Shown here piece by piece: positions 19,560 through 47,405 of a stretch of DNA of 57,940 bases (within the stretch, counting starts at the first letter, position 1; every line of letters begins with the position of its first letter). The translations under genes were made by a program, and so were the position numbers. The stretch is from a virus (Duplodnaviria; Caudoviricetes): positions 1-57,940 of IMG/VR virus record IMGVR_UViG_3300031951_000177. One strand, written 5' to 3'. Under the pieces are notes generated by a model. That model searched no databases and was not told the origin of the DNA. It was given only the letters and a program-made list of their open reading frames with translations.

Positions 19560-19873
19560 ACCGCAACAGCTACCGCGAGCTCGAGCTCCAGGTCGTGCGC
19601 TGGGCCGAGGCCAGGCGCATCATCCCGAACGCCAAGCCACAGGCTCAGCTCAACAAGGCTCTCGAGGAGCTGGCCGAGCTGTTCAAAGCGGAGAGCCAGG
19701 GCAACATGCCTGGCGTCAAGGACGGCGTCGGCGACGTCGTCGTCTGCCTGATCAACTACTGCGCGCTCAAGGACATCGACCTCGTCGACTGCCTGGCCCT
19801 GGCCTACGAAGAGATCAAGGACCGCCGCGGCACGCTGATGCCCGACGGCACGTTCGTCAAGGAGGCGGCATGA
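19556..19873 (+). CDS. mazG: MazG-like nucleotide pyrophosphohydrolase
   Basis: WAEARRI...QLNKALEELAEL...KDGVGDVVVCL...AYEEIKDRRG. Confidence 0.87.
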   Translation: MNRNSYRELELQVVRWAEARRIIPNAKPQAQLNKALEELAELFKAESQGNMPGVKDGVGDVVVCLINYCALKDIDLVDCLALAYEEIKDRRGTLMPDGTFVKEAA

Positions 19874-20514
19874 GCTTCGTCTGTCCACTGCCGCCCGAGA
19901 AGGTCTTCGTGCGCGCCGAGTATCTGTACGACCACGACCCGGCCCGGGTCGGCCAGCTCATCGAAGGGATCTGGGTGAGCGTGAAGTCCATCCGCGGCCA
20001 GGCCTTCCGCTTCGAGACCTACCTCCCGGAGTTCGGCGCGCTGTACGACAAGCTGCCCCTGAGCGCGTTCGTGTGGCACGACGTCCTGGAGGAGGATGAC
20101 CAGCTACCGCTGGACGTGCTCCAGATCTGGGACTGCATGAGCTACCACATCGAGGTCATCGACAAGCCTTTCCTCAAGGGCTTGCGCGCTGAGTTCTTCG
20201 GCAAGGACAAGCAGCTTCACCAGGGCGAGTTCATGCTGACGATCGACTCGTGCAATCCCGACCCGCGAATCCCCGACTTCGGCTTTGCCGAGACGCCGGA
20301 GGAGCACAAGTCGTTCAACCTGCTGCGCCTGGACAACGGCCAGTTCGCGCTGCAGCCGAACAATCGCTGCAGGTTTTTCGACCCGTCGATCACGCACTCC
20401 AACCTGCGCATGCCGGACTTCAAGGTGTGCACCAGGATCTTCCGCGTCGAGAACACCGCGAAGTGGCGCCTGGGCGACACCGTCACGGTGACCTACGACG
20501 AGCGGGCCGAGTAG
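19870..20514 (+). CDS. Phage hypothetical protein
   Basis: 214 aa; VRAEYLYDH, GALYDKLPLSAF, QIWDC, EHKSFN, GQFALQPNNR. Confidence 0.82.
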   Translation: MSFVCPLPPEKVFVRAEYLYDHDPARVGQLIEGIWVSVKSIRGQAFRFETYLPEFGALYDKLPLSAFVWHDVLEEDDQLPLDVLQIWDCMSYHIEVIDKPFLKGLRAEFFGKDKQLHQGEFMLTIDSCNPDPRIPDFGFAETPEEHKSFNLLRLDNGQFALQPNNRCRFFDPSITHSNLRMPDFKVCTRIFRVENTAKWRLGDTVTVTYDERAE

Positions 20515-20515
20515 G

Positions 20516-23500
20516 TCAGTCTCGCTCCTCGCCGTCAATCGTGAGACCGGCCCTGAGCCGGTCTCTCTTTTCCTGCTGCAGCTCGATCTGGCGCTCGGCA
20601 TTCTCCGAGCTGATCGCGCCCTTGTTTTCCAAGCGGCGGATGCTGCGGATGCTGGCCTCGATGTCCCGGATGAGCTTGTTCTCCTGCGACTGCCGGATCT
20701 TCTCAGACAGCTCCAGGTCGATGGGCCTGGCCTTGATGCCGACGGTCTGCATGGCAGAGTAGGCAAGCGACACCGGCTGGCCCTGCTTGTCCACGCCGGT
20801 GTACTCGGCGATGCCAAGGTCCAGGGGTTTGCCCACTTGGTTGGCGATCACGTTCATCGCCCGCTCGAAGTGATTGTTGCCCACCGCGACCGCGGGAGAG
20901 AACTGCTTCCACGCCCAGTCGGCGCGCTTGGCCGCGGCCTCCGCGTCGGTGTCTGCAGCGGTCACGATGTCCTTGCCTCGGAACGTGTCCTTGTTGGCCA
21001 GCATCGCGTAGGCGGTGGTCAGGATCGGGTTGTTCGGCGTGATGGGTGCGATCAGCGGCACGCCGCCGGCGTTGTTGACCGCGTCGAACAGGTCGCCGCC
21101 CGGGAAGATCCGGCTCACGTCCAGGAACACGGGCAGGCCCGTCGCCTCGTCCATGCCCAGGCGGATGGACTTGTAGGTCCCCAGCGTCAGGCTGGCGCCC
21201 TTCATCCACTCAGGCAGGTTCTTGCGCTCGTCGGCCTCCAGGGCCTTGGCCTGGGCCGCAAAGTCCTCGTCAGTGAAGCGGCGCTTGATCAGCTCCCACC
21301 ACTCCTCGTCCTCGCCCGCCCCTGCGGCGATCGCGTACATGGCCGCGTTGATCGTGTACAGCGCCGCGGCCGGGGCAGCGTACCGCCAGGGGTAAGTCAG
21401 CGCCGTCTCGGCCATCGCCGGGATCGCCTTGTAGGTGTAGGCAAAGAACGGCAGGGCGAAGTCTCGGATGCGCCTGGCGTTCTTCGGCAGGTCGTCGTAG
21501 GTGAAGATGAACTTCTGGGCGTAGTCGACAGACTCCGCCGGTGTCAGGCCCTTCGTGCGCGCCTCGCGATAGATCAGGTAGCGGAAGAACAGATCCTCGG
21601 CCTCGTAGGCCTTGCCCATGGGCTTGCGCAGCCAGAACGACAGCGCATTCCACACGCCCTCCACCGCCTTGCCCGTCGGGCTCTCCGTCTTGGCGGCCAG
21701 CACCTTGAGCTGGTCCGGCAGGAGTTGGGTCATCTCGGCCTGGGTCATGGTGCCCAGCCACAGGCCGGCGTCCTTCGCCTCCTGCAGCATCGGCGCGTTC
21801 TTCACGATGTCGCGAGTGGTGGCGATGTACTTGTTGGCGTCCCAGTAGGACACGCCAGCGAAGTGCGCCATGGTCACGTTGGACATGATGTTGTTGGCGT
21901 GGCTGACCGGGTTGAGCACGGTCTTGCCTTCCTTCCACATGCTCATGCCTTTGAGGTACATCTTCAGCACCTCGCTCTGCATCGAGTCGTCGAAGGCAGT
22001 CAGGTGATCCAGTACCTCTTGGGGAACCCACATGCCGGCCAGCTTGCCGTACCGCTTGGCGTAGGTGTCCTCGACGTTGGTGCGCGGCACCTGCACGAAG
22101 CCTTCCTTCTCCTTCTTGCTGGCCACGGTGTCGGCGATGTTCTCGTACAGCCGGCCCAGCGAGATGTCGCGCTGGCTCTTGTTGTAGCCCATGACGAACC
22201 GGAACATGGAGTCCCGGATCTCGCCCATGTCGTCGCGCTCCTGGCGGGTGTAGTCGCGCCAGACCGTGATCTCGGTGTCGGTGTCGGGGTTGAAGTTAGG
22301 GTCGCGCTCCTCCCAGCCCTCGGCCAGCCAGGACTCGAGCTCCTCGACGGGGATGGTCTGGAACAGGCCACGGCCCTTCAGGCTGGAGCCGCCGATGCCC
22401 TGCATGGTCTTCTTGCGGCCAAGCAGCGCCTTGGCCGCCTTGACCCACCCATTGGCCTCGCTCTTGAGCTTGGACTCGTAGAAGCGCGGCAGGTACTTGC
22501 CGTCCCACCGGCCGGCCGCCTCGGGCGTCAGCATGCCCAGGCGCACCAGCTCCGCCGTCTGCTCGGACATGATCGACTGCATGCTGGCCGCCAGCTCGAG
22601 CACGCGCTTGGGCGGCTTGGCGCCACGCTTGAGCTCGCCCTCGATGACGTCGCTGATCATCTCGCGCTCTTGCTGCGGCAGCTCCTGCAGCTTGGTGGCC
22701 ACGTCCACCGTCAGCTCCTGGGCCTTGGAGATCTCCATCTTCATCTGCCGCATGGCACGCGACAGGTCAGTGCTGATGGGCTTGAGCGCCATCTTGTCTA
22801 GCACCAGGTTGGCCACGTCGGCCGCGTAGCGGTAGGCCTTGGCGCCGGCACCGAAGGTGAAGTTGCCCAGGTCGTCGCGTCCCAGGAACCAGGACTGCTT
22901 GCTGCGCGATCCAGCGCGCTGGCTGTAGCGGATGTCGGGGTTCTCGGGGTCAAACTCACCGCTGTTGCCGATGGCGGACTTAATCTGGTTCGATGAGAAG
23001 ACGCCGAGGTTCTTTATCTCTTCGTCCTCCTGAAGCTCCTGAACGTAGAACCCGTCGAAGTTGTTCTTCTTGATCCACTCAATCGCCTCTGGGCTCTCGA
23101 TCACGCGGTAGTCGCCGGCGTGGATCATCTCGAGGATGTCGCTTGCACCAGACGCCTCGTCTGGTGCGTCCTCGGCCAATTGCACGGCACTGGGCGGCTT
23201 AAAGCCAATGCTCTTGAGGTGATCGGCAAGAGCCTGCCTGTGCTCCTTGATTTCGTAGTCGAATGGGTTCTCTGCCTTGACGTAGACGGGGATGACGTTG
23301 AGCCCCTGGAAGAGGTCAGGTCCCCCCATCAGATCTGGCGAGAACGGCACACCAGGGAAGCGCTTGCCGAAGATCTTGGGCTTGGCAATGTCCTCGGCCG
23401 CATCGGGGTCGGGTGACACATAGATCGCTCCGCCAACTCCGATTCTGAACACGCCACCCTCGAGCGGGTTGTCGGTGGCGTGGTACATCACCTTTGGCTT

Positions 23501-23971
23501 CTTCGACCCATCGCTGAAGGGGAACTTGGTTGGCGTTCCACCCGACTCAAGCTCGGCAATCCTTTCGCGCGCCTTCTCGTTTTCTATTTTCAATGAGGCA
23601 ATCAAAGACTTTTGCTTCTCGATCTTGGGCCCCCACCAGTCGGCGCGATCGGGATCCTCCTTGAACCGCTCCTCATAGTCCTTCAGCTCGTTTTCGGCAT
23701 ACGGCAAGGAATCCATCTCGCGCTTGAGACTTGCAATCTCCAAGGCGCGGGCCTGATCAATAGTCCTTCCTGGCTTCTCAAGCACCTTGCTGTTGCCGAA
23801 CCATCGCTTGAACTTGGGCGTCTCAGTCTGAGCACGTCGGCTGAACATCGGGCCGCCCGCGCCCTCGATTGCATCCACACCGTTCAAGGCGAGGAAGGCC
23901 TTCATCTCGGCCATCCCCTTGATGGTGACCTCGCCTCCCGCGGTCTTGAACGTGTAGGTGCAATCAGCCAT
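20516..23971 (-). CDS. Large polyvalent ejection-type protein 2 (about 1151 aa) with an ADP-ribosyltransferase-like (ART-PolyVal) module
   Basis: AGGAG RBS + ATG 23971 (MADCTY). TPKFKRWFGNSKV...VMYHAT...IYVSPDP...VIPVYVKAENPFD...FDGF...VFSSNQIKSAIGNSGEFDPENPDIRYS, then a helical C-terminal region typical of podovirus injected proteins. Confidence 0.85.
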   Translation of the reverse strand: MADCTYTFKTAGGEVTIKGMAEMKAFLALNGVDAIEGAGGPMFSRRAQTETPKFKRWFGNSKVLEKPGRTIDQARALEIASLKREMDSLPYAENELKDYEERFKEDPDRADWWGPKIEKQKSLIASLKIENEKARERIAELESGGTPTKFPFSDGSKKPKVMYHATDNPLEGGVFRIGVGGAIYVSPDPDAAEDIAKPKIFGKRFPGVPFSPDLMGGPDLFQGLNVIPVYVKAENPFDYEIKEHRQALADHLKSIGFKPPSAVQLAEDAPDEASGASDILEMIHAGDYRVIESPEAIEWIKKNNFDGFYVQELQEDEEIKNLGVFSSNQIKSAIGNSGEFDPENPDIRYSQRAGSRSKQSWFLGRDDLGNFTFGAGAKAYRYAADVANLVLDKMALKPISTDLSRAMRQMKMEISKAQELTVDVATKLQELPQQEREMISDVIEGELKRGAKPPKRVLELAASMQSIMSEQTAELVRLGMLTPEAAGRWDGKYLPRFYESKLKSEANGWVKAAKALLGRKKTMQGIGGSSLKGRGLFQTIPVEELESWLAEGWEERDPNFNPDTDTEITVWRDYTRQERDDMGEIRDSMFRFVMGYNKSQRDISLGRLYENIADTVASKKEKEGFVQVPRTNVEDTYAKRYGKLAGMWVPQEVLDHLTAFDDSMQSEVLKMYLKGMSMWKEGKTVLNPVSHANNIMSNVTMAHFAGVSYWDANKYIATTRDIVKNAPMLQEAKDAGLWLGTMTQAEMTQLLPDQLKVLAAKTESPTGKAVEGVWNALSFWLRKPMGKAYEAEDLFFRYLIYREARTKGLTPAESVDYAQKFIFTYDDLPKNARRIRDFALPFFAYTYKAIPAMAETALTYPWRYAAPAAALYTINAAMYAIAAGAGEDEEWWELIKRRFTDEDFAAQAKALEADERKNLPEWMKGASLTLGTYKSIRLGMDEATGLPVFLDVSRIFPGGDLFDAVNNAGGVPLIAPITPNNPILTTAYAMLANKDTFRGKDIVTAADTDAEAAAKRADWAWKQFSPAVAVGNNHFERAMNVIANQVGKPLDLGIAEYTGVDKQGQPVSLAYSAMQTVGIKARPIDLELSEKIRQSQENKLIRDIEASIRSIRRLENKGAISSENAERQIELQQEKRDRLRAGLTIDGEERD

Positions 23972-24455
23972 TGCCCAGCTCCTGGTCAATCAGCAGCATG
24001 CCTGCCTTGTCGCCGCTCACCAGCCCCAGGCGCGCCAGTAGGTCGCCGTACTCGCCGACGCTCTTGCGCTGAACTTCGAGGAACTGCAGCAGGAACTGCT
24101 GGGTCGTCACGCACTTGCACTCGCGATACCACTTCTCGTAGTCGCGCATGAGCTGCAGCTCGGTCTCGTAGCCCAGTTCGATGGCGTCGACGATGTCGGT
24201 GGCCACCTCGGTGCAAGCCTCAAGCGCCGGCACCTTCGCGCTGGTGCCGCGGTCGTTCATGTAGTCGGCAATGAGCTGGTAGTGCTTGAGCTCGTCAGAG
24301 CTCTCGCCGGCAAAGAACTTCTGCGTGCCGAAGAACCCGACGCGCTGCATCTGGTTGGCGACGTGCTTGTACAGGTGCGAGGCGTAGAGCTCAGCGTGGA
24401 CCGCCTTGTTCAGCATGTCCTCGGTGGGCTTGTCGAGCAGATTGGAAACAGGCAT
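23964..24455 (-). CDS. Ferritin-like protein
   Basis: 163 aa; ELYASHLY, ESSDELKH, YMNDRG, YETELQL, EVQRKSVGEYGD match ferritin ferroxidase helices; GAGG RBS. Confidence 0.9.
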   Translation of the reverse strand: MPVSNLLDKPTEDMLNKAVHAELYASHLYKHVANQMQRVGFFGTQKFFAGESSDELKHYQLIADYMNDRGTSAKVPALEACTEVATDIVDAIELGYETELQLMRDYEKWYRECKCVTTQQFLLQFLEVQRKSVGEYGDLLARLGLVSGDKAGMLLIDQELGNG

Positions 24456-24464
24456 TGTGATACC

Positions 24465-27400
24465 TCACTTGCAGTTGATCTTCACCAGGCCGGCGTCGTC
24501 GAGCCGCTCCAGGATGTCCATGAACTCTTGGTCGATGCGGCGGATTGTCTCAGCCATCGGGTGCGCGTCAACCCGCTCGAGCGCACGCACGCGCCCCAGG
24601 CCTCGGGCGTCTTGCAGATCGCGGAACAGGCCGGCCACTTCCTTGTCCTCAGCACGGGCGCGCTGACTGAATGCGGGCGCATCCTGCCAGCCCTGCGGCG
24701 ACGAGGTCGGCTTGTAGTAGGTGCCGATCCAGCCCATCAGGTTGACGTCGGTCTTGACCGTGCGCGCAGAGATCATCTCCGCCAGCTTGGGCCACACCCC
24801 AGGCCAAGACACGAAGTTGCCATTGAGCTTGACGTCAGCCTTAGGATCTCCAGCCTTGCGACCAGTCAGCGCCTGCTTGGCCAGGCCGGGGTCCAGGTAC
24901 AGCAGGTTGCCGTCGTTGATGCGTTTCATCAGCACCTGCTCGTTCGGCTTGCCGCCGGAGATCGACACGCCCTTGGCGTAGATCGACATCACCGCGCCGG
25001 TCGGATCGGTGTTGTCCACCGACACCTTGATCGGGACGATCAGCGCGCCCTTGTCGCTGGTGATCGGCAGCACCAGCTCGAACTCGCGGGGGTTGCCGTC
25101 CTTCGACTTCAGCACCATGGCCGGGCGGTAGATGCCCTCGATGAGCTGCTTGGGCGTGATGTCGGGAAGCTCGTCCGCGTGTCCTTTTTCTGCCTTGGTC
25201 CTGATGAAGACCTTGTTCACGATGCTGGTGGCGATGTCGAAGTCCTGCGTGCGAGCGCCCAGCATGTTGAGCACATGGGGCAGCCGGCCGATGGTGAGCT
25301 TCGGCAACTGGCGTCCCTGCTGCGCCTCGCGGATGTAGCGCTGCAAGTTGATCGAGGCGCCCTCGATCTCTTTGTTCAGGGCGCTCTGCGGCGACACCTT
25401 CGGCAGTTGACGGTTGCTGAATGCTGGCGCTTCAGCTCGAAGCTCGCGAGCCAGCTCGCCGCGGTACATGACCTTGTCGGACTGCCACACCGGGTTGCCA
25501 GCCAGGCGCTCGTAGACGTCCGGCATGCCGCGAGAGATGAGCTCCGCCCAACGCTTGCCGGACACCTGCCCGGCCGGCAGCATCTTGTTGGCTGAGATCT
25601 TCTCAGCGTCGCTCAGCACTCGCTCACGGGCCGGTGCAACAGCCTCGCCTGCCATGCGGCTGCGAGCGCCGAGCTGCTCGACGGGCACCGCATGCCGACC
25701 CAGCAGCACTGCATTGCCTGACGGCCCGGCGTCGCGCACCATGTAGCCGTCGAAGCCTGCGTCGATGACGGCCGACTCGAAGTCGTTGAAGGACTCGTTG
25801 TCGCGGCGCAGACGCAGCGTGTCCTCGTCGACGTCGTACAGGTTCTGCAGATTGACGCGGTGAGCCTGGCCCCCCACGCCGGCCTCAGGATTGATGCCGG
25901 TGCCGCGATCGATGTAGAAGTTGATGCGCTGCTTCAGGCGCGGATCTGCGCCCTGCAAGCGCGTCATCTCGGCACCGCGCAGGCCGGTGCCATACATCAC
26001 GCTGTCGAGGGTCGTGCGGGGCTGGGTGCTGTAGTGATAGCCGACCGCGGAGGCGGCGCCCTCTCGAGGGGTGCCGTAGGAAGGGGTTACCGCTTGAACG
26101 TCTTGCGGCCCCACTCCTCGATCGCGTCCACCGCCGGCTGCATCGGATCCGCCTCGGTTGCTGAACTGGATTCGGCCGGGGTCTCCCCACTGGTACTTTT
26201 CGGCGAACTGCTCGAAGACTCGCTGGACCCGAGGCGCGAGAACACTTCTGGCCCAGTCGAGAACATCGGATCGTCCCGCGGCACTAATCCTTTGTATGTA
26301 GCCTTGCCCATTCGGGTTTACCTCCCAGTCATTGGTTGGCATGTCGCCGCTGGAGGCGAACACGCGATAGTCGAAGTCCGGCAGCACCCCCTCCGCGACC
26401 TTCACGATCTCTGATTGGAGTACGTCATTTGTGATGATACCGAAGTTCACGGCCCTAATACCAGTGGGAGAACTGATCAGCGCAAACTGGTTCTGCCAGT
26501 TGACCTTGCCGTTGTCGTCCATCCACTTGCCGATTGCCGCCTCGAGATCTCGCGTTTCTACCGGGTTCAGTGCCCGGCCGATGTCGATGTCCAGGCCGTT
26601 GGACTGGCGCTTCGTGCCGGCGTAGAAAGGACGGTGCCAGCCCACCCCCTCCTGCCTGGCCACCAGGCCGGCCACGGACGCATAGACGTTGAGCAGCTCG
26701 GCCTGTGCCGGGTCGACGTTGCTCTTGCCCGCATCGCCTCCGGCCGGCGCCATAGCCACGCGCTTCTGCGTGCTGGGTGACACCTCGCCCTGCCACACGC
26801 CCGGGCGCATCAGGTCGCTGGGCTCCGTCAGAAGGCCGAGCATTACGGCCAGCATGTCGCTGCCGTTCTCGTCGTAGAAGGCCCGCTGCACGGCCTGATG
26901 GAACTCCACCTGCTGGGCATACGGTGCGGTGTGGATCCCCTCTAGAACGCCCGTGCTGCGGCCTGGCCGAGCCTCGAACGAAAGCTGACCGACGTGACGT
27001 CCGACTCCATCAGCAAAGTCGAACTTGGCCTGCTCGGTATCCTCCTTGGTGGGCACATGCTCCGTCGCATGCTTGAGCCAGTTGTCGCGGTGCTTCTGCG
27101 CGTCGATGATGACGCGGACCTTCTTGCCCTTCGCGTCGCGCTCAAACCTGATCCAGCCATTCTTTTCGCTGCTGGCCTCAGTCCTCTCCTTGACGCCTTT
27201 GTTCTCCATGCGGGCCTTCATCGCGACCCAGATGGCGGCCTGCACTTGCTGCGGCTCCCATCCCATCTCCTGCGCAATGCGGTTGGTCTCGTTCTCCATG
27301 AAGGCGTACTGCGTCGGCGTGGGTGCGTCGTTGGCGTACTCGGCCGCACGCATCATCCACATGTCGATCGTCGCGCCCTGCTTGCCGGCAGTGCTGGTGT

Positions 27401-30400
27401 CGATCTCGCGCAGCAGGTTGAAGAAGAAGTTGCCCGTCTTCTCGCCAGACCAGAAGGCGTCAACGTCGGCCATTGCCTGAGTCGCCTTCTTGTCCTGCAC
27501 CCCGGTCTTGACGCTGATCGGCTGGCCAGCCTTGTACTGTGCCCAGGCTCGCAGCGCAAACGTCGAGTTACTGTCGACACGCGCCTGCGGGCTGTAGATG
27601 GCCAGCAGGGCAACGAACTTGCGCGCCTCCTGCACGTTGCCGCCAGTCATGCGCAAGATCGCCAGGCTGCTGTTCTCGTACCAGTAGCGACCGCGCTCGC
27701 CCTCTTTGGTCAACTTGAGAAGGATGGCGCGCAGCTCACCAATCTTTTCAGGGGTGTTGTACTTTTCGGGTGCGCCGACGTACTTTCCGTCCCGCATTGG
27801 CAGCTCGTCGAGCACAACGCCAGCCCGGCTGTATGCCGTCTTGCGGCCCTCAAGCGCAGCCCTCACACGCGGTGCGGCCGACGTGGTGAACACAATTCCG
27901 TCTTTGGTGTTGCGACCCTTCACGTCATCAGGGATGCTGGCGCGGATAGCCTCGTGGCTTCCATAGACCATGATCGTCCCGTCCCGCATAGTGCGGACAT
28001 CAAAGTCACCCACGCGCTCGGTGCCCTCGCGGGGCTTTAACTCTTGTGAAGTTTTTGATACACTTGACTCGTCAGGAGATCCTATGAAAGTCCCCTCTTC
28101 CTTCCCAGCCGGCTGCGAGTTCGTTGCCTCGTTCTCCGGCGACGAGTTCGTCAAGTTCCCCGACGGCAAGCTCTTCAAGCTCGCCGACTCCGGCGAAGAG
28201 CTCGTGCCAGCCAGCTCGCTGCCTGCACGCGGCGCGCCGATGTCGGAGGCTGCCTTCCTGTCCTGCGCCGAGGGCTGCCGCAAGTTCGCCGCCGAGAAAG
28301 CTGCGTCGTAAAGACCACGCATCGCGTCGTAGATCTCGCCGCGCAGCGGTGAACCCTCAGGCTGCTCACGGGCGGCCTCGTACAACTTGTGGCCCTGGCC
28401 ATCCTTGGCGGCCAGCATGGCGGGCGTATTGATCTGGATCTCACCCACCGTGCCGTTGGGCATTCTGATGTTGATCAGCACGTCGGCATAGCCGCCGAAC
28501 TTTTGGCGGTCTGACGACTCCACCCCCTCGCCAGTCACGCCAGCACCGGCGCGGTCCTTGATGCGGACCACGTCGAACTCCTTGCGGATCTCGTCGATGA
28601 TCGCGGGCGCGTCGGCGTAGCTGTCGACCACGATGGTCGAGCGCAGCAGGTCCTTGATGTTGTCGACCTGGTAGTTCTCCTCAAGCGCCAGCTTCTCGGC
28701 CGCACGCTTGATGCCCTTGATGGGCGCCAGCATCTGGCCGGTGGCGCCGGTGCGCGCTGCGATGTTCAGGATCTTCTGGTCGTACTCCGGCTTGACCTGC
28801 TCGGCCGCTTCCATCCTGGGCTTCAGCAAGATCTCTGCGCGCAGGCGATCCTGCGGCGAAACGGAGACTGGCTGCCGCTCCTTGAAGTACTTCTCGACGA
28901 ACCCGTCGGCCGCCGCCACTGTCTCTGCCGGCACCGACTCGGACAGCAGCGAAGCCATGTCGCGCTGATTGTTGAAGTTGTCGGCCTTCGGGTTGTAGTC
29001 GCTGACCTTCACAGGCTCGCGGGCCCGGCCGCTGAACATGAACTCGGACTTCTGTCCGTAGGTTGGGTTCTTGGCCAGCACCAGGGGGCCGATTTGGATG
29101 ACCTCCTGCGCAGCGACGACGGGCTCCATCGTGGAGCGGTCGTAGAAGTAGCTGTGCCGCTCGGGGTCCATGCCGACCTGGATCCAGGACTTGGAGTTGA
29201 GAGCAGCCTGCGCAAACGCGACCGCCTGCTTCTCGGTCATCTGTTTCCACTTGCCCTCGATGCGAGCGAACGGAGACTTAGCCGAGTCGCCCTTGGCGAT
29301 CTCAAGCGCCTTCTCCTGCTCGCGAGGGGTCATCGCAAACTCGGCATCGGTCACGGCCGACACGTTTCCGTACAAGGTCTTCTTGTCCTTGTTGGCCGGG
29401 TGGATCGAGTTGACCCACACGCCGTGGTCCTTGTACGCCGGAATATCCAGGCGCAGCCCCACGCGCTCGCCGTTGGTCAGCTCTTTGTCGGCGATGCCGT
29501 AGCGCGGCAGCTTGGCCGACGTCAGGGCGCGCTCGGCGTCAGCCTGAGTTGCAGGCTCAGGCACGAACGAATACGGCGCCACGGGCTTGTATTCGTCCAC
29601 CATGCGGGCGTAGTCCTCGCGAGTGATCGCGCCTTGGGACAGCTTGTTCGCCCCCTCGGTCAGCTCCGGCACCCGCTTGGTCACGTCCTTGAAGTCCATG
29701 CTCAGGCGGTTGACGGCAACGCGCTGAGACGCCATGGCCATGCCCTCGAGCTGCACGTCGGGCTGCAGGCCCTGCGCCTTCATCGCGTCGGCGTAGGCGG
29801 TCGTCAACAGGTCGCGAGCCTTCGCGACGTCGGAGATGTACTTGTTGACGAAGTCCTCGCCGTACTGCTTCTTCGCGCCGGTGATGATGTCGCCGAGCTT
29901 GGCGATGATGGTCTTGGCCACCTCGCCAAACTCCTTGTTGCCCATCTTCGTGCGCAGCTCTTGCCAGAAGTCCTCGCGCTTGCTGATGGCCTGCACCATC
30001 ATGGCCGGGGCCTCCTCCTCGAACTTGTCCGGCGTGTAGCTGAACTCGTCGAGGAACTTGTCCTTGCGGTCCTGGCGGAACAGATCCAGCAGCGCGGTGT
30101 TCAGGCTTTTGCGCTGAGCCTCCGGCAGGCCGTGATAGGCCTCGTGCACCGTGATGGCCAGGGGCGCATCGTCCGCATCGTCGGCGACGAACAGGTGCTT
30201 GCCGCCGACGCTGTTGATCATGCCGTTGGGCAGAGCGCCTGCACCGGTCTCCTGGTGGACTACCGTCAAGGTCTTGCCCATCAGGCGCGCCACCGCACTG
30301 GCCAGGCGCTGCGAGTCGTTCAGGTCGGTCGACTTGACCGGCGAGAACGTGACGCCGAGCTGCTGGTCGAGCTGCTTGTTGAGCGAGCTCAGCTCTCGCA

Positions 30401-32675
30401 GCGGCGCCGTGGGCGCGAGCTTCAGTCCGGCACGTTCAGTATCAGACAGTTCAACCGGGGCGCCGGTTGCGGCGGGGATGCCACCAGCGCCGCTTTGTGC
30501 GGCACCTGCCATTTGGCCTGCTGGTGTTGCTCCTTGCGTTTGGCCTTGCTGGGCTTGAGGGGTTTGCGTGCCAAGGTTGGTCTCCTTTTGGTATCCGACA
30601 ATCTGAAAGCGCCCGTTGCCCATGGGCTCGACACGCCAGTCGTGAGTCTGCCTGGTGTCGATGACCGTGCTGGCAGTGGCCATCGCCTGCTGAGCGTCCT
30701 GCTCGTTTGCATAGCCAGTCTTTGCGCGGCCAGTCCAAGTCAGCGGCTCACCGCCTACGGCTACGCCGGCAGGCTGTTGGCCGGCCGCACCTCCAGCAGG
30801 TACAGCCTGTCGATCATTGACTCCAGGGATCGCGAGAGCTCCGCCTCCGTACCCGGTGGCACCTGCAGCGCCAGGTCCTGCAGCTCCCATGCTTCCGTCA
30901 ATGAGACCGCCCCCTGCCTCACCCCCTGCTCCAGCCAATCCTCCAGGTAAGCCTGTTGTGCCGACATTCGCGCCTCCCATGCGCAGCTTGTCCAGACCGA
31001 ACTGCTCCTCGGTCGACGGGTTGATCTCGGGCAGGATAGGAGCCGCGTTCGGCAGCGGCACCTCGATGTCCACCAGGCCGGCCTGCTTGGTCGGCGCGTT
31101 GGGCGGGGTGAAGTTCTTGACGGTCGCGGCGGGTGAGATCAGGTTTGAGGTGCCGGCTTCCGTGCGCAGCATGTCAATGCTGATAGCTTGCGATGCCTCT
31201 GGCCCAAGGTTCTCAAACGCACGCCCAGCCGAGTCGATCTCCCGCGCAATCTGGCGCTCAGGTTCGTAGTAGCCGGTCGCTGCGGCGGCAACCTGAGGCG
31301 CGCTCATCAGCTTGCCCGTCACGCCGCCAACAACTCCGGCCTCGGCCAGGCCCTTGGTCAGCTCAATGTCCTTGCCCTGGAAGTACTTGTCGAGCACGTT
31401 GCCGCCGAACTGCGCAGCCACTTCTTCGATCGCGTTGGTCAGCCCGTTGGCAGTGATTGCACCGCCGGCCTGCAGAGCGCGCTGGCCAGCCACCGCCAGC
31501 ACCGTGTTGGCCTTGGCCGGAGACATCCCCTTGAGCACGTCGCCGACTTTGTCGAACACACCAAGCGGCAGCTTCTCGGATATGTACTCCACCCCGCCCT
31601 TGGCGAGAGCCACGCGGGAGTCGTCGCCTTGAGCGAAGCTCTGGCCAGCCGCCGTGCCTGCCATGCCAGGCAGCAAAGCTGCGCGCAGCGGCGGCACAAA
31701 CGCAGCCAGCAGAGACTGCGCGATCTGCGGCGAGTTGGCGGCGAGCTTCGACATCAACCACGGCGCAAACTCTTGGCGCGCAATGGCCTCGTCCATCTCT
31801 TGCTTGCCAACCTTTGGCATGAAGTCGCTGGCAGACTTGGCCAGGTACTCAGTGCCAAATGCGGTGGGAACAGGGGGGAGATCTTGCATTCCCAGTGCGC
31901 GCAGCACCGGGTTGATGGCAGTCTTGTTGAAGGCGTCTGCGGCGACCGAGGGGATGTTGATCACGCCGCTGATCAAGCCCGCGGAGCCGGCAGCAATGGA
32001 ACCCAGCAGCGGATTCTCTTCGGCAAACTTGCGGCGCCCTTCGGATTCCGCCATTTGGCTGGTAACGCCACTGATCTCGTCTACGCGCAGACCCTCATCG
32101 GCCACGCGCACGCCCTGCGCCAGCATGCGGCGGTCGGCGATCTGCTTAGCCGAGCGGCCATCCATGATGTCGCCAAAGCCAGGAGTGACATCAGGAATTG
32201 AGACGGGCGACGCTGCGCCGGCACCAAGCCTGGGCGGCGGGACATTGCCGGGTCCACGCGGAGCATCCAGCAATCTTTGAGCTCGCCCCTCCTGGTCCAA
32301 GCTGATGCGCTTGTTTTCTGCCTGCGCCTCAGACAGGATCTGACGCGCCGCCCGGCCCAGCACATCTGTGCGATTGTCGGCCAGGGTAGTCAACAGGCGC
32401 ATGCGATCTTCAGGCGCGGCCTTGCCGATGATGTCGCGCCGAACGCCGGCCACATAGTCCTGGTTCAGCATCGGATCGAACCCGGGCGTGCGAGGCACTT
32501 CGCCAGGCTGATCCATCACGCTGCGGATCAGCGGCCCGCCGGTAGGCGCGCCCTGCATGGCCGTGGCCATGTCGGAGTAGTCCGTCGCATCGGCGGACTC
32601 CACCTCCTCAATCGGGATGAAGCGGAAGGCTTTCTGCTCTTCCTTCTCGAACTCGGAGATGGGTACGAATCGCAT
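24465..32675 (-). CDS. Giant polyvalent ejection-type protein 1 (about 2736 aa): metallopeptidase, RelA/SpoT-like synthetase, HhH-glycosylase-like, ART-like and MuF-C/PBECR nuclease-like modules
   Basis: HEAYH (about 30140); IKGIKRAAEK...DLLRSTIVV...GYADV...EIQINT...HKLYE (about 28330-28830); YWYE...AIYSPQ...TIDMWMMR...QVQAAIW (about 27220-27700); YHYS...FYI...GFDGY (about 25700-26045); IGRLPHVL...H...IYRPAMVLKS...SIYAK (about 24870-25310). Confidence 0.9.
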   Translation of the reverse strand: MRFVPISEFEKEEQKAFRFIPIEEVESADATDYSDMATAMQGAPTGGPLIRSVMDQPGEVPRTPGFDPMLNQDYVAGVRRDIIGKAAPEDRMRLLTTLADNRTDVLGRAARQILSEAQAENKRISLDQEGRAQRLLDAPRGPGNVPPPRLGAGAASPVSIPDVTPGFGDIMDGRSAKQIADRRMLAQGVRVADEGLRVDEISGVTSQMAESEGRRKFAEENPLLGSIAAGSAGLISGVINIPSVAADAFNKTAINPVLRALGMQDLPPVPTAFGTEYLAKSASDFMPKVGKQEMDEAIARQEFAPWLMSKLAANSPQIAQSLLAAFVPPLRAALLPGMAGTAAGQSFAQGDDSRVALAKGGVEYISEKLPLGVFDKVGDVLKGMSPAKANTVLAVAGQRALQAGGAITANGLTNAIEEVAAQFGGNVLDKYFQGKDIELTKGLAEAGVVGGVTGKLMSAPQVAAAATGYYEPERQIAREIDSAGRAFENLGPEASQAISIDMLRTEAGTSNLISPAATVKNFTPPNAPTKQAGLVDIEVPLPNAAPILPEINPSTEEQFGLDKLRMGGANVGTTGLPGGLAGAGGEAGGGLIDGSMGAAGPGAAGATGYGGGALAIPGVNDRQAVPAGGAAGQQPAGVAVGGEPLTWTGRAKTGYANEQDAQQAMATASTVIDTRQTHDWRVEPMGNGRFQIVGYQKETNLGTQTPQAQQGQTQGATPAGQMAGAAQSGAGGIPAATGAPVELSDTERAGLKLAPTAPLRELSSLNKQLDQQLGVTFSPVKSTDLNDSQRLASAVARLMGKTLTVVHQETGAGALPNGMINSVGGKHLFVADDADDAPLAITVHEAYHGLPEAQRKSLNTALLDLFRQDRKDKFLDEFSYTPDKFEEEAPAMMVQAISKREDFWQELRTKMGNKEFGEVAKTIIAKLGDIITGAKKQYGEDFVNKYISDVAKARDLLTTAYADAMKAQGLQPDVQLEGMAMASQRVAVNRLSMDFKDVTKRVPELTEGANKLSQGAITREDYARMVDEYKPVAPYSFVPEPATQADAERALTSAKLPRYGIADKELTNGERVGLRLDIPAYKDHGVWVNSIHPANKDKKTLYGNVSAVTDAEFAMTPREQEKALEIAKGDSAKSPFARIEGKWKQMTEKQAVAFAQAALNSKSWIQVGMDPERHSYFYDRSTMEPVVAAQEVIQIGPLVLAKNPTYGQKSEFMFSGRAREPVKVSDYNPKADNFNNQRDMASLLSESVPAETVAAADGFVEKYFKERQPVSVSPQDRLRAEILLKPRMEAAEQVKPEYDQKILNIAARTGATGQMLAPIKGIKRAAEKLALEENYQVDNIKDLLRSTIVVDSYADAPAIIDEIRKEFDVVRIKDRAGAGVTGEGVESSDRQKFGGYADVLINIRMPNGTVGEIQINTPAMLAAKDGQGHKLYEAAREQPEGSPLRGEIYDAMRGLYDAAFSAANLRQPSAQDRKAASDIGAPRAGSELAGTSSSPESASLKSLPSGNLTNSSPENEATNSQPAGKEEGTFIGSPDESSVSKTSQELKPREGTERVGDFDVRTMRDGTIMVYGSHEAIRASIPDDVKGRNTKDGIVFTTSAAPRVRAALEGRKTAYSRAGVVLDELPMRDGKYVGAPEKYNTPEKIGELRAILLKLTKEGERGRYWYENSSLAILRMTGGNVQEARKFVALLAIYSPQARVDSNSTFALRAWAQYKAGQPISVKTGVQDKKATQAMADVDAFWSGEKTGNFFFNLLREIDTSTAGKQGATIDMWMMRAAEYANDAPTPTQYAFMENETNRIAQEMGWEPQQVQAAIWVAMKARMENKGVKERTEASSEKNGWIRFERDAKGKKVRVIIDAQKHRDNWLKHATEHVPTKEDTEQAKFDFADGVGRHVGQLSFEARPGRSTGVLEGIHTAPYAQQVEFHQAVQRAFYDENGSDMLAVMLGLLTEPSDLMRPGVWQGEVSPSTQKRVAMAPAGGDAGKSNVDPAQAELLNVYASVAGLVARQEGVGWHRPFYAGTKRQSNGLDIDIGRALNPVETRDLEAAIGKWMDDNGKVNWQNQFALISSPTGIRAVNFGIITNDVLQSEIVKVAEGVLPDFDYRVFASSGDMPTNDWEVNPNGQGYIQRISAAGRSDVLDWARSVLAPRVQRVFEQFAEKYQWGDPGRIQFSNRGGSDAAGGGRDRGVGPQDVQAVTPSYGTPREGAASAVGYHYSTQPRTTLDSVMYGTGLRGAEMTRLQGADPRLKQRINFYIDRGTGINPEAGVGGQAHRVNLQNLYDVDEDTLRLRRDNESFNDFESAVIDAGFDGYMVRDAGPSGNAVLLGRHAVPVEQLGARSRMAGEAVAPARERVLSDAEKISANKMLPAGQVSGKRWAELISRGMPDVYERLAGNPVWQSDKVMYRGELARELRAEAPAFSNRQLPKVSPQSALNKEIEGASINLQRYIREAQQGRQLPKLTIGRLPHVLNMLGARTQDFDIATSIVNKVFIRTKAEKGHADELPDITPKQLIEGIYRPAMVLKSKDGNPREFELVLPITSDKGALIVPIKVSVDNTDPTGAVMSIYAKGVSISGGKPNEQVLMKRINDGNLLYLDPGLAKQALTGRKAGDPKADVKLNGNFVSWPGVWPKLAEMISARTVKTDVNLMGWIGTYYKPTSSPQGWQDAPAFSQRARAEDKEVAGLFRDLQDARGLGRVRALERVDAHPMAETIRRIDQEFMDILERLDDAGLVKINCK
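26087..26311 (-). CDS. Candidate nested gene (+1 frame) inside giant protein 1
   Basis: GGAGGT-7 nt-ATG; 74 aa MGKATYKGLVPRDDPMFSTGPEVF...AVDAIEEWGRKTFKR; host-frame codon usage is locally atypical. Confidence 0.5.
   Translation of the reverse strand: MGKATYKGLVPRDDPMFSTGPEVFSRLGSSESSSSSPKSTSGETPAESSSATEADPMQPAVDAIEEWGRKTFKR
28036..28078 (+). promoter_or_regulatory. Internal antisense promoter and RBS
   Basis: TTTAAC(28036)-17 nt-TACACT(28059), AGGAG(28074), in an AT-rich patch inside a GC-rich gene. Confidence 0.65.
28084..28311 (+). CDS. Candidate nested antisense gene (75 aa) next to the RelA/SpoT module; putative immunity protein
   Basis: Promoter + AGGAG + ATG; MKVPSSFPAGCEFVASFSGDEFVKFPDGKLFKLADSGEELVP...; the host frame here is a Ser-rich low-complexity linker. 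Confidence 0.65.
   Translation: MKVPSSFPAGCEFVASFSGDEFVKFPDGKLFKLADSGEELVPASSLPARGAPMSEAAFLSCAEGCRKFAAEKAAS
30422..30574 (-). CDS. Weak candidate nested gene (+1 frame, basic, 50 aa)
   Basis: AAGGAG-7 nt-TTG; MARKPLKPSKAKRKEQHQQAKWQVPHK. Confidence 0.3.
   Translation of the reverse strand: MARKPLKPSKAKRKEQHQQAKWQVPHKAALVASPPQPAPRLNCLILNVPD
30761..30967 (-). CDS. Candidate nested gene (+1 frame, acidic helical, 68 aa)
   Basis: GGAGG-5 nt-ATG; MSAQQAYLEDWLEQGVRQGAVSLTEAWELQDL...; GC3 bias shifts to this frame while the host frame uses TTA/GGA/GCA codons. Confidence 0.62.
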   Translation of the reverse strand: MSAQQAYLEDWLEQGVRQGAVSLTEAWELQDLALQVPPGTEAELSRSLESMIDRLYLLEVRPANSLPA

Positions 32676-32677
32676 GC

Positions 32678-33862
32678 TTACTTCCCGACGTAGCCGATGA
32701 CCTTGCCGCTCTTGTCCTTCACTTCCCAACCCCGACCAGACACAAGCGCGCCGATCGAGGAGCCGGCCGGGGCGCCCTGCACTTGGGCGATTTGCGGCGG
32801 ACTCTTGGCGTCAGAGGGGGCCGGGGCCGCTGGAGCCGCCGCGGGAGCGCCGCTGGATTCTCCACTACCAGGCCGCTTGAACTGCTTCATCGCCGCATTC
32901 AATTCCGTCAGCTCGTTCAGGAACGGCTGAATCTCTTCAAGCCTTGTCTTGGCCTTTGCGTCACCGGCTTCAGCACGCTTGCGCAGGGATGCGAGCGAGG
33001 CGTTGACCTCGTTCTTGGTGACCCCAAGGGTCAGCGCAATGTCGTCCTTGCTGGCGTTGATCTGACGTTGAATGTCCGCGGTGGTCGCTGGCTTCTTGTT
33101 CGGGTCAGAAGGGTTCGCCGAGCGCTCAGCGCGTCTTTCACGGGTGCGCGCATCTGCCTCCATGATGCCCAGGCGGCGATCGGTCTGATCGCCTCGACGG
33201 CGGCCCTCATCTGCGCGCTGCCTGTTCCCTTCTTCGATCAGGTCCAGCCGGCGATTTGTCGCGGCCTGCTCAGCGGCGCGCTGCTTCTCTCTGTTCTCCT
33301 CGGCCACCTCGCGCAGCGTGTCCGCCTTGGCCTTCGTGTAGGCATCGAGCACAGACGAGTGCGCACCCATTCCCATGGCCGCGGTCACGCGGTCCTCGGC
33401 AGCGATCATCCGCGGGTCGCGGGTCGACTCTGCTGCACCCTCGATCAGGCCTGACTTGCGGTAGCTCTCGCGCAGCGCCGGATCCTTGCGGATCAGGTCG
33501 AGCATCTGCTCCTTGCTGAGCGCGATGTCACCCTCCTCGCCGGCCTTGGCAGACATCTCACCCAGCTTGGTGGCGTCAGAGTCCATGCGCGCAGTGCGGC
33601 GCTCGGTCCCCATCTGCGTGGCGCGCTGCTCGACCTGCGCGGTTTCAGCAGTCACGCGCTGCTTCAGCGTCTCGGCCTTCTTCTCCTCGCGCTCGGCGCG
33701 GATCCTGTCAGCCTCCTCGGCCCGCTTGATGGCGTTGGCCTCGCGCCGCTCCTCGTCCTCGCGCCTGCGCTGGTCCTCGATGTCCTTCAGCATGTAGCTG
33801 CCAAAGGTGGTCCCGGCATCTGCGATGCCTTTGCCGATCCCGGCCCAGATCAGTCCGCTCAT
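32678..33862 (-). CDS. Putative ejection/internal virion protein (charged coiled coil)
   Basis: 394 aa; position between the pilot-like genes and the giant protein. Confidence 0.8.
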   Translation of the reverse strand: MSGLIWAGIGKGIADAGTTFGSYMLKDIEDQRRREDEERREANAIKRAEEADRIRAEREEKKAETLKQRVTAETAQVEQRATQMGTERRTARMDSDATKLGEMSAKAGEEGDIALSKEQMLDLIRKDPALRESYRKSGLIEGAAESTRDPRMIAAEDRVTAAMGMGAHSSVLDAYTKAKADTLREVAEENREKQRAAEQAATNRRLDLIEEGNRQRADEGRRRGDQTDRRLGIMEADARTRERRAERSANPSDPNKKPATTADIQRQINASKDDIALTLGVTKNEVNASLASLRKRAEAGDAKAKTRLEEIQPFLNELTELNAAMKQFKRPGSGESSGAPAAAPAAPAPSDAKSPPQIAQVQGAPAGSSIGALVSGRGWEVKDKSGKVIGYVGK

Positions 33863-44114: not shown

Positions 44115-44647
44115 AGCGTTGAATCCTCAAATCTGTTCTGTTTGCGAAGGTTTTCCGCCGCAGTGGTTATTCGCAGATTATTTTCTACATGGAGTCCAGC
44201 GACGTTTTTTCCGCGAAGCGGGATGATGTGATCGACATGATGTTGCACCCCCGTCAGGGTGGTGAGCAGTCGAGCTTCGGCGTAAATGCGCGCAATAGCC
44301 TGCTTGTTGGCCCAGAGGGGAACAGACTTCGACTGAGTGCGGCGAGGGTTTGCGGAGCGCCACACAGACATGTAGTCGTTCAGCTCTTTTCTGTTTCTTG
44401 CTCTCCACGCCGCCGATGATGCTTTTCCGGTTTCGCTTGAGGCATGCTTTGCTTTGCTGACAGCGGATCTCTCTTGGTTCTCAATGTTCCACTTGCGCGA
44501 CAGCTTGACGCCGCATGGTTTGCATCTGTTGGACAGTCCAGTGCTGCGAGAAGGGATGACGTAGAAGTTCTCCTTCTCAAGTAGCTGCGAGCACGCACCG
44601 CACCAGTACAAGCCGAGGTCAGGACGAGACTTCCGCGCTGATCTCAT
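44111..44647 (-). CDS. HNH endonuclease
   Basis: CGAC...CKPC, PLWAN, HHVDHIIPLRGKNVAGLHVENNLRITTAAENLRKQN. Confidence 0.9.
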   Translation of the reverse strand: MRSARKSRPDLGLYWCGACSQLLEKENFYVIPSRSTGLSNRCKPCGVKLSRKWNIENQERSAVSKAKHASSETGKASSAAWRARNRKELNDYMSVWRSANPRRTQSKSVPLWANKQAIARIYAEARLLTTLTGVQHHVDHIIPLRGKNVAGLHVENNLRITTAAENLRKQNRFEDSTL

Positions 44648-46709: not shown

Positions 46710-47405
46710 TTAAGCCAGCGGGTTCCCCAGATACAGCTCAGGGAGCTGCTCTCGCTCAAGCTGATTCATCAGCCGGCTGAACTCGGTGTTGCCCTTGCTC
46801 AGCACCTCGGGCGCAGCCTCGAACAGGCCGTAGAACTGCATCGCCTTGTAGACGATGGCCAGGTGCAGGTGCTCAGGCATGGCAGGCACATCAGCGTCCG
46901 CAGTCATTGACGTCGGCAGAACCTGGTACTCACCGCTGATCAAGTACACGTCGTCGGGGATCTGGCCCAGCATGACGGCCTTGCCGTTGGGCTTGATCGC
47001 AAAAACCACGGGCCGGCCGTTGACCTGCACGTTGAAGCGGTAGGTGTTGCGGAAGACCTGGTACTCCCATTCCACCAGCCACTGCTCGTCCTGCACCCCG
47101 ATGCTCTTCTTCTGGCAGCGGAAGGTGTCCTTCCACCAATACCGAAGGTCGGTCATCAGCGTGCTGGTGACTGTGTTCGTAACAGTCGCCGGCAGATAGT
47201 CACCAGTGCTGGCGACTGTCTCAAACGTGAACGGCTCGCGCATCCAGTTCCAGTTGTCGTGCATGCCCTGAATCTCGACCCATGCGTCGTTGGTCCAGTT
47301 CACGAGCTTCTGGTACATGCCTGTCTGACCCAGAACAGAGGCGGGGCCGCCACCGGCGACACCGCACTCGACGGCCAGACGTTGCGCGAGCTGCAGGTAG
47401 TTCAT
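46710..47405 (-). CDS. Head-tail adaptor
   Basis: MNYLQLAQRL...WNWMR...PDDVY...MPEHLHLAIVYKA; position. Confidence 0.78.
   Translation of the reverse strand: MNYLQLAQRLAVECGVAGGGPASVLGQTGMYQKLVNWTNDAWVEIQGMHDNWNWMREPFTFETVASTGDYLPATVTNTVTSTLMTDLRYWWKDTFRCQKKSIGVQDEQWLVEWEYQVFRNTYRFNVQVNGRPVVFAIKPNGKAVMLGQIPDDVYLISGEYQVLPTSMTADADVPAMPEHLHLAIVYKAMQFYGLFEAAPEVLSKGNTEFSRLMNQLEREQLPELYLGNPLA

Follow-up and report, generated by a model that had tools for sequence, protein, structure and literature searches.

Polyvalent proteins are thought to be a main phage and plasmid route for anti-defence and takeover enzymes. A survey of these proteins in phages and conjugative elements (Iyer 2017, PMC5512222) describes chains of unrelated effector domains whose genes lie beside virion genes, proposes in general terms that a zincin-like metallopeptidase (MPTase) domain carries out self-processing, notes an HEXXXH variant, and covers the processing of phage P1 DdrB. 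The available text of a preprint (10.64898/2026.04.10.717836) reports gp47 of phage phi24B, a polyvalent protein of 2811 aa, in virions by mass spectrometry. The DNA analyzed here (the window) is the whole virus record IMGVR_UViG_3300031951_000177, 57,940 bp and rated 100% complete, which is a complete 57.9-kb podovirus-like phage genome. Its minus strand encodes, at 20516-32675, two polyvalent proteins (genes A and B) along which a short peptide, [FY]S-x-R, is repeated as a joint between modules, and gene A also contains a domain with an HExxH peptidase motif. The polyvalent class itself is known; apparently new are the joint motif, its codon-level role in module exchange and its tie to a peptidase family, none of which was found described in the searchable literature (supplements and subscription papers lay outside the search). 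The searched text of PMC5512222 names no cleavage or joint motif, though its supplementary alignments might show the residues, and does not mention 'boundar', 'shuffl' or 'linker'; the text of Jamet 2017 (PMC5576092) gave no match for cleavage, junction or recombination terms.

Genes A and B are members of the polyvalent class. They combine at least two unrelated effector or enzyme domains per chain with PolyVal or LPD signature domains and lie beside virion genes, as in PMC5512222, with whose proteins they share ART-PolyVal, LPD38, MuF_C, RelA/SpoT-type and zincin-like MPTase domains. The HEXXXH variant described there also occurs in relatives of the proteins studied here; a point of difference is that the peptidase domain here matches no Pfam model. 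A four-residue joint that can be read from the sequence, matches module exchange to the codon and tracks one peptidase family bears on whether and where polyvalent proteins are cut and on why their domain sets change fast. It gives exact module boundaries for expression and assay of effectors, supplies a concrete candidate site and enzyme for cleavage, and provides a rule by which metagenomes can be mined for effector cassettes.

Polymorphic toxins carry short demarcation motifs, VENN in CdiA and PxxxxDPxGL in Rhs proteins. As in the window, these are short conserved peptides at recombination breakpoints between a constant part and exchangeable modules, but they occur once before the C-terminal toxin, whereas the motif described here is repeated along a module array. 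Polymorphic toxins moreover use a secretion system, in contrast to virion delivery here, and in the present case no immunity gene was identified, though no immunity function was examined, and there is no sequence relation. The likeness, a conserved peptide at which variable modules are exchanged, is one of mechanism, and no homology is claimed. Viral polyproteins such as those of picornaviruses are cleaved by a protease of the same chain, the 3C protease, at a short site that recurs along them. The system in the window resembles them in its protease domain in cis, its repeated short motif in inter-domain linkers and its site dialects that match the protease type; it differs in belonging to a double-stranded DNA tailed phage, in carrying accessory effectors and not replication proteins, and in that cleavage is here something we infer. 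The internal proteins of phage T4 and its Alt protein have a capsid-targeting leader that is removed by the head protease. Gene B is like Alt-type cargo in encoding an ADP-ribosyltransferase (ART) with a short N-terminal leader and then a conserved site (B 1-53), and unlike it in that the search revealed no head protease family, the motif is absent from the head proteins, and the candidate protease lies within the cargo.

The motif and its place in the modules

The preliminary description regarded 20516-32675 as a single payload, but the span consists of three minus-strand open reading frames (ORFs), gene A, a ferritin-like gene and gene B, the ferritin-like gene being the only one between the two polyvalent genes (Table 1). 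All eight motifs that had been listed are present on the minus strand, and the HEAYH string does lie ahead of the array, at 30132-30146. As a common consensus, [FY]S-x-R holds for six strict sites, whereas MASQR (A-S-x-R) and AYSR (no x) depart from it. TWC-AGY codons are found in seven of the eight motifs, as had been noticed, the exception being MASQR with GCG-TCT. Nuclease domains had been listed as known parts of phage polyvalent proteins, and none was found in this region. Residue numbers refer to the 2754-aa reading of gene A (P0001) and the 1157-aa reading of gene B (P0002).

The motif is more frequent in the two proteins than residue composition predicts. The 3911 aa of A and B contain six strict [FY]S.R sites compared with 0.79 ± 0.89 in residue shuffles, and six or more were reached in 2 of 5000 shuffles. 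When the x was made optional ([FY]S.?R), seven sites were counted against 1.55 expected (reached by 8 of 5000 shuffles), and the loosest form, [FYA]S.?R, gave nine against 4.75 (242 of 5000). There is one strict match in the 18 other translated minus-strand genes (6924 aa). It reads 'HYSMRRGLR' and lies 8 residues before the C-terminal end of a structural-block protein of 685 aa (44644-46701, minus strand). AGY accounts for 40% of the Ser codons in A and B, so that its use in seven of eight motifs has P = 0.009.

In relatives, F, S and R are constant at the FSGR site and x is variable (FSGR, FSAR, FSNR). Of 25 distinct homologues, 20 have [FY]SR at the AYSR position (18 with AYSR, one each with TYSR and AFSR), and the remaining five have TYGR (four) or AYTR (one). 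The MASQR site is kept in a form like [VP]MAS[NQ]R after 'QGL.PD' in many of 80 peptidase-domain representatives, in which it is then followed by unrelated modules.

The position of the motifs relative to folds was judged on two AlphaFold2 (AF2) models of parts of gene A, using the predicted local distance difference test (pLDDT). Four motifs (MASQR, AYSR, QFSNR and AFSNR) coincide with or adjoin stretches or dips of low confidence next to confidently modelled folds. MASQR is inside A 994-1010, where pLDDT is below 50; AYSR is in a dip at model residues 71-80 (mean 55); AFSNR is inside a segment below 50 (model residues 876-892); and the F of QFSNR is the last residue of a block with a mean pLDDT of 85, followed by a 32-residue linker below 50. 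The linker position of AFSQR could not be judged because the MuF_C part was poorly modelled, probably owing to a shallow alignment there. The proposed AlphaFold check of the segments placed four motifs at fold or linker edges. The models suggest that each module closes with h-[F/Y]-S-x-R, whose aromatic residue is the last ordered one and whose S-x-R opens a flexible linker. We read the motif as the mark of a module's C-terminal end, after which come a variable linker and the start of the next module.

Module exchange and selection on the peptide

A scan of IMG/VR yielded 38 related loci with gene A relatives (designated by L numbers). Alignments between the window and its relatives break at A ~1000-1007, 1244, 1627, 2185-2195 and 2686-2704 and at B 53-60 and 344-362, and at least one break falls within -10 to +13 residues of seven of the eight window motifs. 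QFSNR coincides with 10 breaks from 10 relatives (A 2185-2195), RYSQR with six from six, MASQR with six from five, and the FSGR and AYSR joints with one each. A first set of 37 non-redundant large proteins (of 51) showed a break within ±8 aa at 53 of 74 motifs compared with 19% of random positions, and break density peaked at offsets 0-4. An independent set, the 80 proteins that represent the peptidase-domain family at 50% identity, showed a break at 78 of 97 motifs compared with 36% of random positions; upstream blocks ended mostly at Arg, and downstream blocks started mostly at -4 to +1. Breakpoint clusters within 10 aa of a motif numbered 47 of 579, against 13.3 expected.

The movements of single modules can be followed in the related loci. 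The B homologues of L005, L007 and L011 lack the ART module, which is replaced in L002, L003, L038 and L039, whose ORFs share with gene B nothing except the leader and motif (q2-53/60); leader and motif are also kept in ORFs of L004-L008 and L011. In L006, L004 and L008 the ART module sits inside gene A at the AFSQR joint. The ART modules of gene B in the window and of gene A in L006 are 94.8% identical and both L006 crossovers lie inside TTC-AGY-NNN-CGN-GC, a recent module move between gene B and gene A. The module at A 2212-2384 stands ahead of the DUF7178 module in L015, L017, L024, L025 and L033, and in L009 a different module ends '...GVQFSNR' and is followed by the same downstream sequence. 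Among related phages modules have been lost, gained, replaced and rearranged, and the crossovers fall in the codons of the motif. The proposal that the motif serves as a recombination joint for module shuffling is supported by the breaks at the motif and by the L006 crossovers in its codons.

At the joints F/Y, S and R are conserved, but x changes and so does the Arg codon (CGC 19, CGA 7, CGG 6, AGA 1 and CGT 1). The joints in this genome have only 8-11 identical bases in common, and the DNA pattern is not enriched genome-wide, with 13 occurrences against 8.05 expected and 8 of 100 shuffles reaching 13; a genome-wide DNA site was rejected on this last ground. Since the residues are kept despite codon change, few bases are shared and genome-wide enrichment is absent, selection acts on the peptide, and the motif is a joint conserved at the protein level. 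Very probably, then, it is a module-delimiting swap joint under protein-level selection.

Serine codons carry a further record of the joints. Ser is encoded by AGY in 26 of 34 context clusters compared with a 41% background (P = 2.8e-5), and the eight TCN clusters are mostly interior, chance-like contexts. At the peptidase-adjacent site, Ser is TCN in the window and in 12 of 12 distinct relatives. AGY and TCN cannot be interconverted by single steps without losing Ser; therefore Ser appears to be essential, and the array joints appear to be related by recombination and not re-invented. We infer that the array joints descend from one another and that the peptidase-adjacent site represents a separate, older lineage.

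The peptidase family and competing explanations

H862, E863 and H866 of the HEAYH string and E905/E906 of the probable third zinc ligand (EE, A 905-906, 30012-30017) are invariant across 20 aligned homologues, the conserved combination of HExxH and downstream Glu ligand that characterizes gluzincins. The AF2 model of the domain has a pLDDT of 86.5 and a predicted TM-score (pTM) of 0.83. The top VIA-align rows were zincins or LF-like domains, namely Certhrax (Z 5.3), anthrax LF (5.2), PPEP-2 (5.2) and PPEP-3 (5.0), with lugdulysin (4.1), ArdC (3.9) and thermolysin (3.8) further down, all below the tool's trust level. A sequence search of the PDB with the domain gave nothing below E 0.75. Because structural neighbours appear only at Z ~5 and Foldseek returned no significant match, we call the domain zincin-like by its motif, the fold being unproven. 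Its family comprises 80 representative clusters in 1.84 billion proteins, and HExxH or HExxxH is present in all 29 A-type relatives.

In 120 ART-PolyVal proteins drawn from a large collection, 148 [FY]S.R sites were counted where 42.4 ± 6.2 would be expected, and the controls were flat ([FY]T.R 40 vs 40.6; [LI]S.R 70 vs 69.7; reversed motif 31 vs 43). Roughly one context in two is the ART tail 'NPDIR[FY]S.R'; others are the ends of other modules ('W.DAP[AS]FS.R', 'GG.P[ML]FS.R') or stand just before the ART module start 'T.TP.FK.WFG.SKV'. The 80 proteins with this peptidase domain contain 100 [FY]S.R sites against 35.4 ± 5.8, four of them in the 51,117 aa ahead of the domain and 93 in the 113,457 aa that come after it, the first joint following directly after the domain. 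FS.R ranked third in an unbiased scan of all 'ab.c' patterns, in which the other top patterns apparently stem from conserved domain positions, such as HE.Y from HEAYH.

The ART tails fall into exclusive classes, R[FY]S.[RK] in 46 proteins and TKA.GG in 17, with none having both, and FS.R is enriched only in the former (121 vs 18.1 expected, compared with 1 vs 3.5 in the TKA.GG class). As a control class, 120 giant proteins (306,407 aa; P0203-P0322) with a 'STFLHExxH' peptidase-like module, assigned to PF18834 in precomputed annotation, were examined, and [FY]S.R was not enriched in them (44 vs 57.1 ± 7.5). ART tails of this class end 'NP.IL.Q'. The pattern [ILV]L.Q[GASPQ], which was picked post hoc, occurs 219 times against 68.3 expected in the control class and 27 times against 41.4 in the window-type set, part of the 219 being a domain-internal conserved site. 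The 'STFLHExxH' proteins may use an (I/L)L.Q joint instead, with the same caution about a pattern picked post hoc. Caulobacter phage RapA, of the STFLHE type, has a 2039-aa polyvalent protein with zero [FY]S.[RK]. The joint motif thus co-varies with the peptidase family, and this co-variation, though confounded by phage lineage, is the strongest indirect argument for a protease-site relation.

Two side observations concern the same protein sets. The third ART tail, 'YD....DITKA.GG' (P0031, P0037, P0059, P0068 and 13 others), occurs up to three times per protein and 24 times in all against 0.4 expected, never together with R[FY]S.R. In the control class, FS.R is four-fold depleted (9 vs 33.9 ± 5.4) and YS.R is not (35 vs 23).

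Two candidate explanations for the motif were rejected. No head-protease family was detected at E <= 0.01 in the four genes that separate portal from capsid and in six other structural-block ORFs, which leaves room for a remote, unrecognised head protease, and the strict motif is absent from the capsid, scaffold-position and portal proteins; a head-protease site was rejected for this phage on these two grounds, and for the same reasons no enzyme other than the peptidase carried by the cargo presents itself as a candidate. The idea that the motif depends on the ART, its Arg serving for instance as a target of ADP-ribosylation, was rejected because L005, L007 and L011 keep joints without an ART in the sampled A- and B-type genes.

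We propose that the window-type zincin would recognise h-[F/Y/A]-S-x-R and cut the strings into separate effectors. The first cut would fall at the peptidase domain's own C-terminus, cutting could take place in the capsid or after ejection into the host, and the leader of gene B would be removed at MFSRR, comparable to the removal of capsid-targeting leaders in T4. Linker position, confinement downstream of the HExxH domain and co-variation with the peptidase family make it plausible that the motif is a cleavage site, and we regard the chances that this particular peptidase cuts there as about even. The combined statement, swap joint and cleavage site in one, seems to us evenly poised as well. 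A predicted complex of the peptidase domain (alignment A2 residues 20-252) with a 43-residue joint peptide (A 2180-2222) scored 0.01 with a mark of 0.32 and gave no verdict either way. It is conceivable, and we put it forward tentatively, that tailed phages have a polyprotein-processing code in which each cargo-borne zincin family reads its own joint of four to six residues and thereby releases working enzymes from the injected effector strings. The dialects would then be R[FY]SxR here and TKAxGG and (I/L)LxQ in other systems, and the same joints would be in-frame splice points for the trade of effectors across lineages. If true, such a code would predict both the boundaries of mature effectors and the peptidase that matures them.

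Several observations weigh against a swap joint that is also cut by this peptidase. AFSNR (A 2437) has no break among the sampled relatives, 532 of 579 breakpoint clusters lie farther than 10 aa from any motif, and break clusters without a motif occur at A 1520-1580, where the homology blocks of 22 breakpoints start, and at 2200-2230 and 2340-2384. The swap-point mapping suggested in the preliminary description accordingly held in that homology breaks concentrate at the motif, and failed at the motif-free boundaries near A 1520-1580 and 2340-2384. The break counts are not independent events, because the sequences are related, and so their independence is overstated. The joint also degenerates in more distant relatives, for example to ISFSKQ, IDFSDQ and ISIAPK. 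As for the peptidase, the fold matches are weak (Z ~5), the Foldseek search with the domain model returned nothing at E <= 1e-3, and hmmscan of A 701-1004 found no Pfam peptidase model at E <= 1. An HExxH string is present in cis in only 26 of the 120 ART-PolyVal proteins, counted on protein sequences, the L.Q pattern of the other class is a post hoc choice, and phage lineage confounds the co-variation of motif and peptidase. Finally, the N4 virion RNA polymerase (vRNAP) and ArdC, which have similar peptidase domains, are reported in PMC5512222 as transferred full-length, and therefore a non-proteolytic role stays alive.

Such a role would be that of a functional short linear motif that is not cut, either a domain cap, with an aromatic anchor and a basic linker start, or a repeated docking or threading tag that binds the portal, core, scaffold or ejection channel. 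The protein-level conservation and the place at the fold/linker boundary, where F is confidently modelled and S-x-R is not, would fit this explanation, a repeated tag would likewise be confined to the cargo part, and, besides the uncleaved N4 vRNAP and ArdC (PMC5512222), the available text of preprint 10.64898/2026.04.10.717836 does not report processing of phi24B gp47. A general domain cap, however, should not switch 'dialects' on the same ART family, nor should it be absent from strings with a different peptidase-like module. No docking partner is known, and the N-terminal ~740 residues, more likely to be the structural anchor, do not contain the motif. We consider an uncut motif rather doubtful.

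The strings might also be cut at the motif by something other than the HExxH domain, namely a host or other phage protease, or the Ser itself through an N-to-O acyl shift. Self-cleavage of this kind occurs in Nup98 at a His-Phe-Ser site. In favour of this alternative, no residue of the motif is kept more strictly than Ser, whose codon class is frozen, gene B has motifs and no peptidase, and the HExxH string is present in only 26 of the 120 ART-PolyVal proteins. Such self-cleavage, however, needs a dedicated upstream fold, and the folds upstream of the motifs here are unrelated; the search for a head protease family was negative, the head proteins do not carry the motif, and its presence tracks the peptidase family. 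Cutting without the HExxH domain is thus improbable in our judgement.

A further alternative is a joint that acts only at the DNA level, as microhomology for recombination with no role for the peptide. Crossovers inside the motif codons and a skewed Ser codon class would follow from it, but the shared stretches of 8-11 bases, the changing x and Arg codons under kept residues, the interchange of F and Y, the lack of genome-wide enrichment, and the persistence of the peptide in distant lineages with different DNA make it very improbable. Hardly credible is a chance or ascertainment artefact in which the motif is the inherited tail of a few families (ART-PolyVal, MuF_C, DUF7178) and breaks merely track domain ends. 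About half of the ART-set contexts are indeed the ART tail 'DIR[FY]S.R', and breaks are to be expected wherever a domain stops; but at least seven unrelated modules, and the leader as well, finish with these four residues, a variant form also follows the peptidase domain, the same ART family ends differently in other systems, and breaks peak inside the four residues and not just nearby.

Module anatomy and genome context

The coordinates of genes, motifs and modules are collected in Table 1. Both polyvalent genes sit at the end of the minus-strand structural gene block, which includes portal-like, capsid and tail-fibre genes, and the gene directly upstream of A ends at 32678.

Table 1. Genes, joint motifs and modules of the window. 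Motif coordinates give the first base of the F/Y/A codon, with the extent of the site in brackets.
Feature	Position	Strand	Evidence or remark
Portal/adaptor-like gene	55313-57511	-	podovirus-like structural block
Major head protein	48712-49743	-	phrog_1357, 4.3e-55
SU10-type adaptor	46710-47405	-	PF24175, 1.4e-12
Tail fibre	41298-44114	-	
Gene A, giant polyvalent virion-type protein	24465-32675 (ATG, 2736 aa) or 24465-32729 (TTG, 2754 aa)	-	ORF list, translation
Ferritin-like gene between A and B	23964-24455	-	PF00210, 1.7e-19
Gene B, ART-PolyVal protein	20516-23971 (ATG, 1151 aa) or 20516-23989 (TTG, 1157 aa)	-	
MASQR, peptidase-adjacent joint, A-S-x-R variant	29732 (29721-29735)	-	Ser codon TCT
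MFSGR, FSGR joint	29036 (29025-29036)	-	
AYSR, YSR joint, variant without x	27833 (27825-27833)	-	
QFSNR, FSNR joint	26165 (26154-26165)	-	
AFSNR, FSNR joint	25421 (25410-25421)	-	
AFSQR, FSQR joint	24671 (24660-24671)	-	ART insertion point in L006, L004, L008
MFSRR, FSRR joint after B leader	23845 (23834-23845)	-	
RYSQR, YSQR joint	22927 (22916-22927)	-	end of ART tail 'NPDIR[FY]S.R', widely conserved
Constant N-terminal part of A	A 1-740	-	no Pfam match
Zincin-like HExxH domain	A 759-989, 29763-30455	-	
Module 3	A 1005-1231, 29037-29717	-	no Pfam match; transfers as unit
RelA/SpoT-like nucleotidyltransferase module	A 1237-1500, 28230-29021	-	PF04607 E 1.2e-4, under Pfam gathering score
Small beta-rich domain	A 1567-1632, 27834-28031	-	AF2 strands and helices, pLDDT ~85
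DUF7178 module, most widely shared	A 1637-2188, 26166-27821	-	PF23802 9e-15; AF2 pLDDT mostly 85-95
Alpha/beta domain plus helices	A 2222-2433, 25431-26066	-	order relative to DUF7178 module varies in relatives
MuF_C-like module	A 2442-2686, 24672-25406	-	PF18819 E 3.9e-5, under gathering score
Conserved C-terminal tail of A	A 2692-2754, 24468-24656	-	stays C-terminal whichever module precedes
Gene B leader	B 1-48	-	
ART-PolyVal module	B 54-354, 22928-23830	-	PF18760 7.1e-11, 43.5 bits vs cutoff 31.2
LPD38-like C-terminal part of B	~800 aa	-	weak LPD38 match, E 0.021

Several modules of gene A are also found elsewhere. Module 3 is mobile, a second gene in L017 aligning to q1002-1244, and it has tblastn matches in Roseobacter phages CRP-207 and CRP-9. 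The RelA/SpoT-like module, which is followed by a Ser/Pro/Glu-rich stretch reaching to ~A 1565, moves separately in L017. The alpha/beta domain gave tblastn matches in phage zth2-2 and Limnohabitans phage DC33 at q2214-2366, and the end of the MuF_C-like module, 'W.DAP[AS]FS.R', is also found in unrelated polyvalent proteins. The LPD38 match is strong (1e-23) in the B-type relatives of L002 and L039.

No close cultured relative emerged from searches of isolated phages with gene A, the MuF_C module plus C-terminal tail, and the ART module. Gene A had no match by megablast and only single-module matches by tblastn, in 7 records; the MuF_C module with the C-terminal tail had none; and the ART module matched only Caulobacter Rauchvirus phages and one Tunturiibacter phage. 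The capsid protein is at most 42% identical to those of the nearest isolates.

In all relatives the DUF7178 module begins with the small beta-rich domain ('G.F.V....DG...V.GD...IR...P'), and a related small domain opens the replacement module in L009, so that it may be a generic module 'head'. The AF2 model of the DUF7178 module matched AGOG-type 8-oxoguanine DNA glycosylases (1xqo, 3n0u) in Foldseek with a probability of 0.96-0.99 but an E of only 0.09-0.25, over 211-230 columns with TM 0.42-0.49. As a lead, this model suggests that DUF7178 could be a DNA-base-directed enzyme. Further modules lie between the same joints in B-type or neighbouring genes of relatives, namely a Zeta-toxin kinase (1.3e-14) at L033:15381-19256 and RelA/SpoT-like and Phage_L5_gp82-like modules at L017:13184-15553.

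The ferritin-like gene occupies the same position in 22 related loci with 62-95% identity and may serve as virion cargo, in iron handling or in immunity. On the opposite strand, a gene at 19870-20514 (plus) that matches a ferredoxin-annotated PHROG (phrog_3704, 9.2e-88) abuts the end of gene B. The ferredoxin-like and ferritin-like genes are two iron-related accessory genes that flank the effector genes or lie between them.

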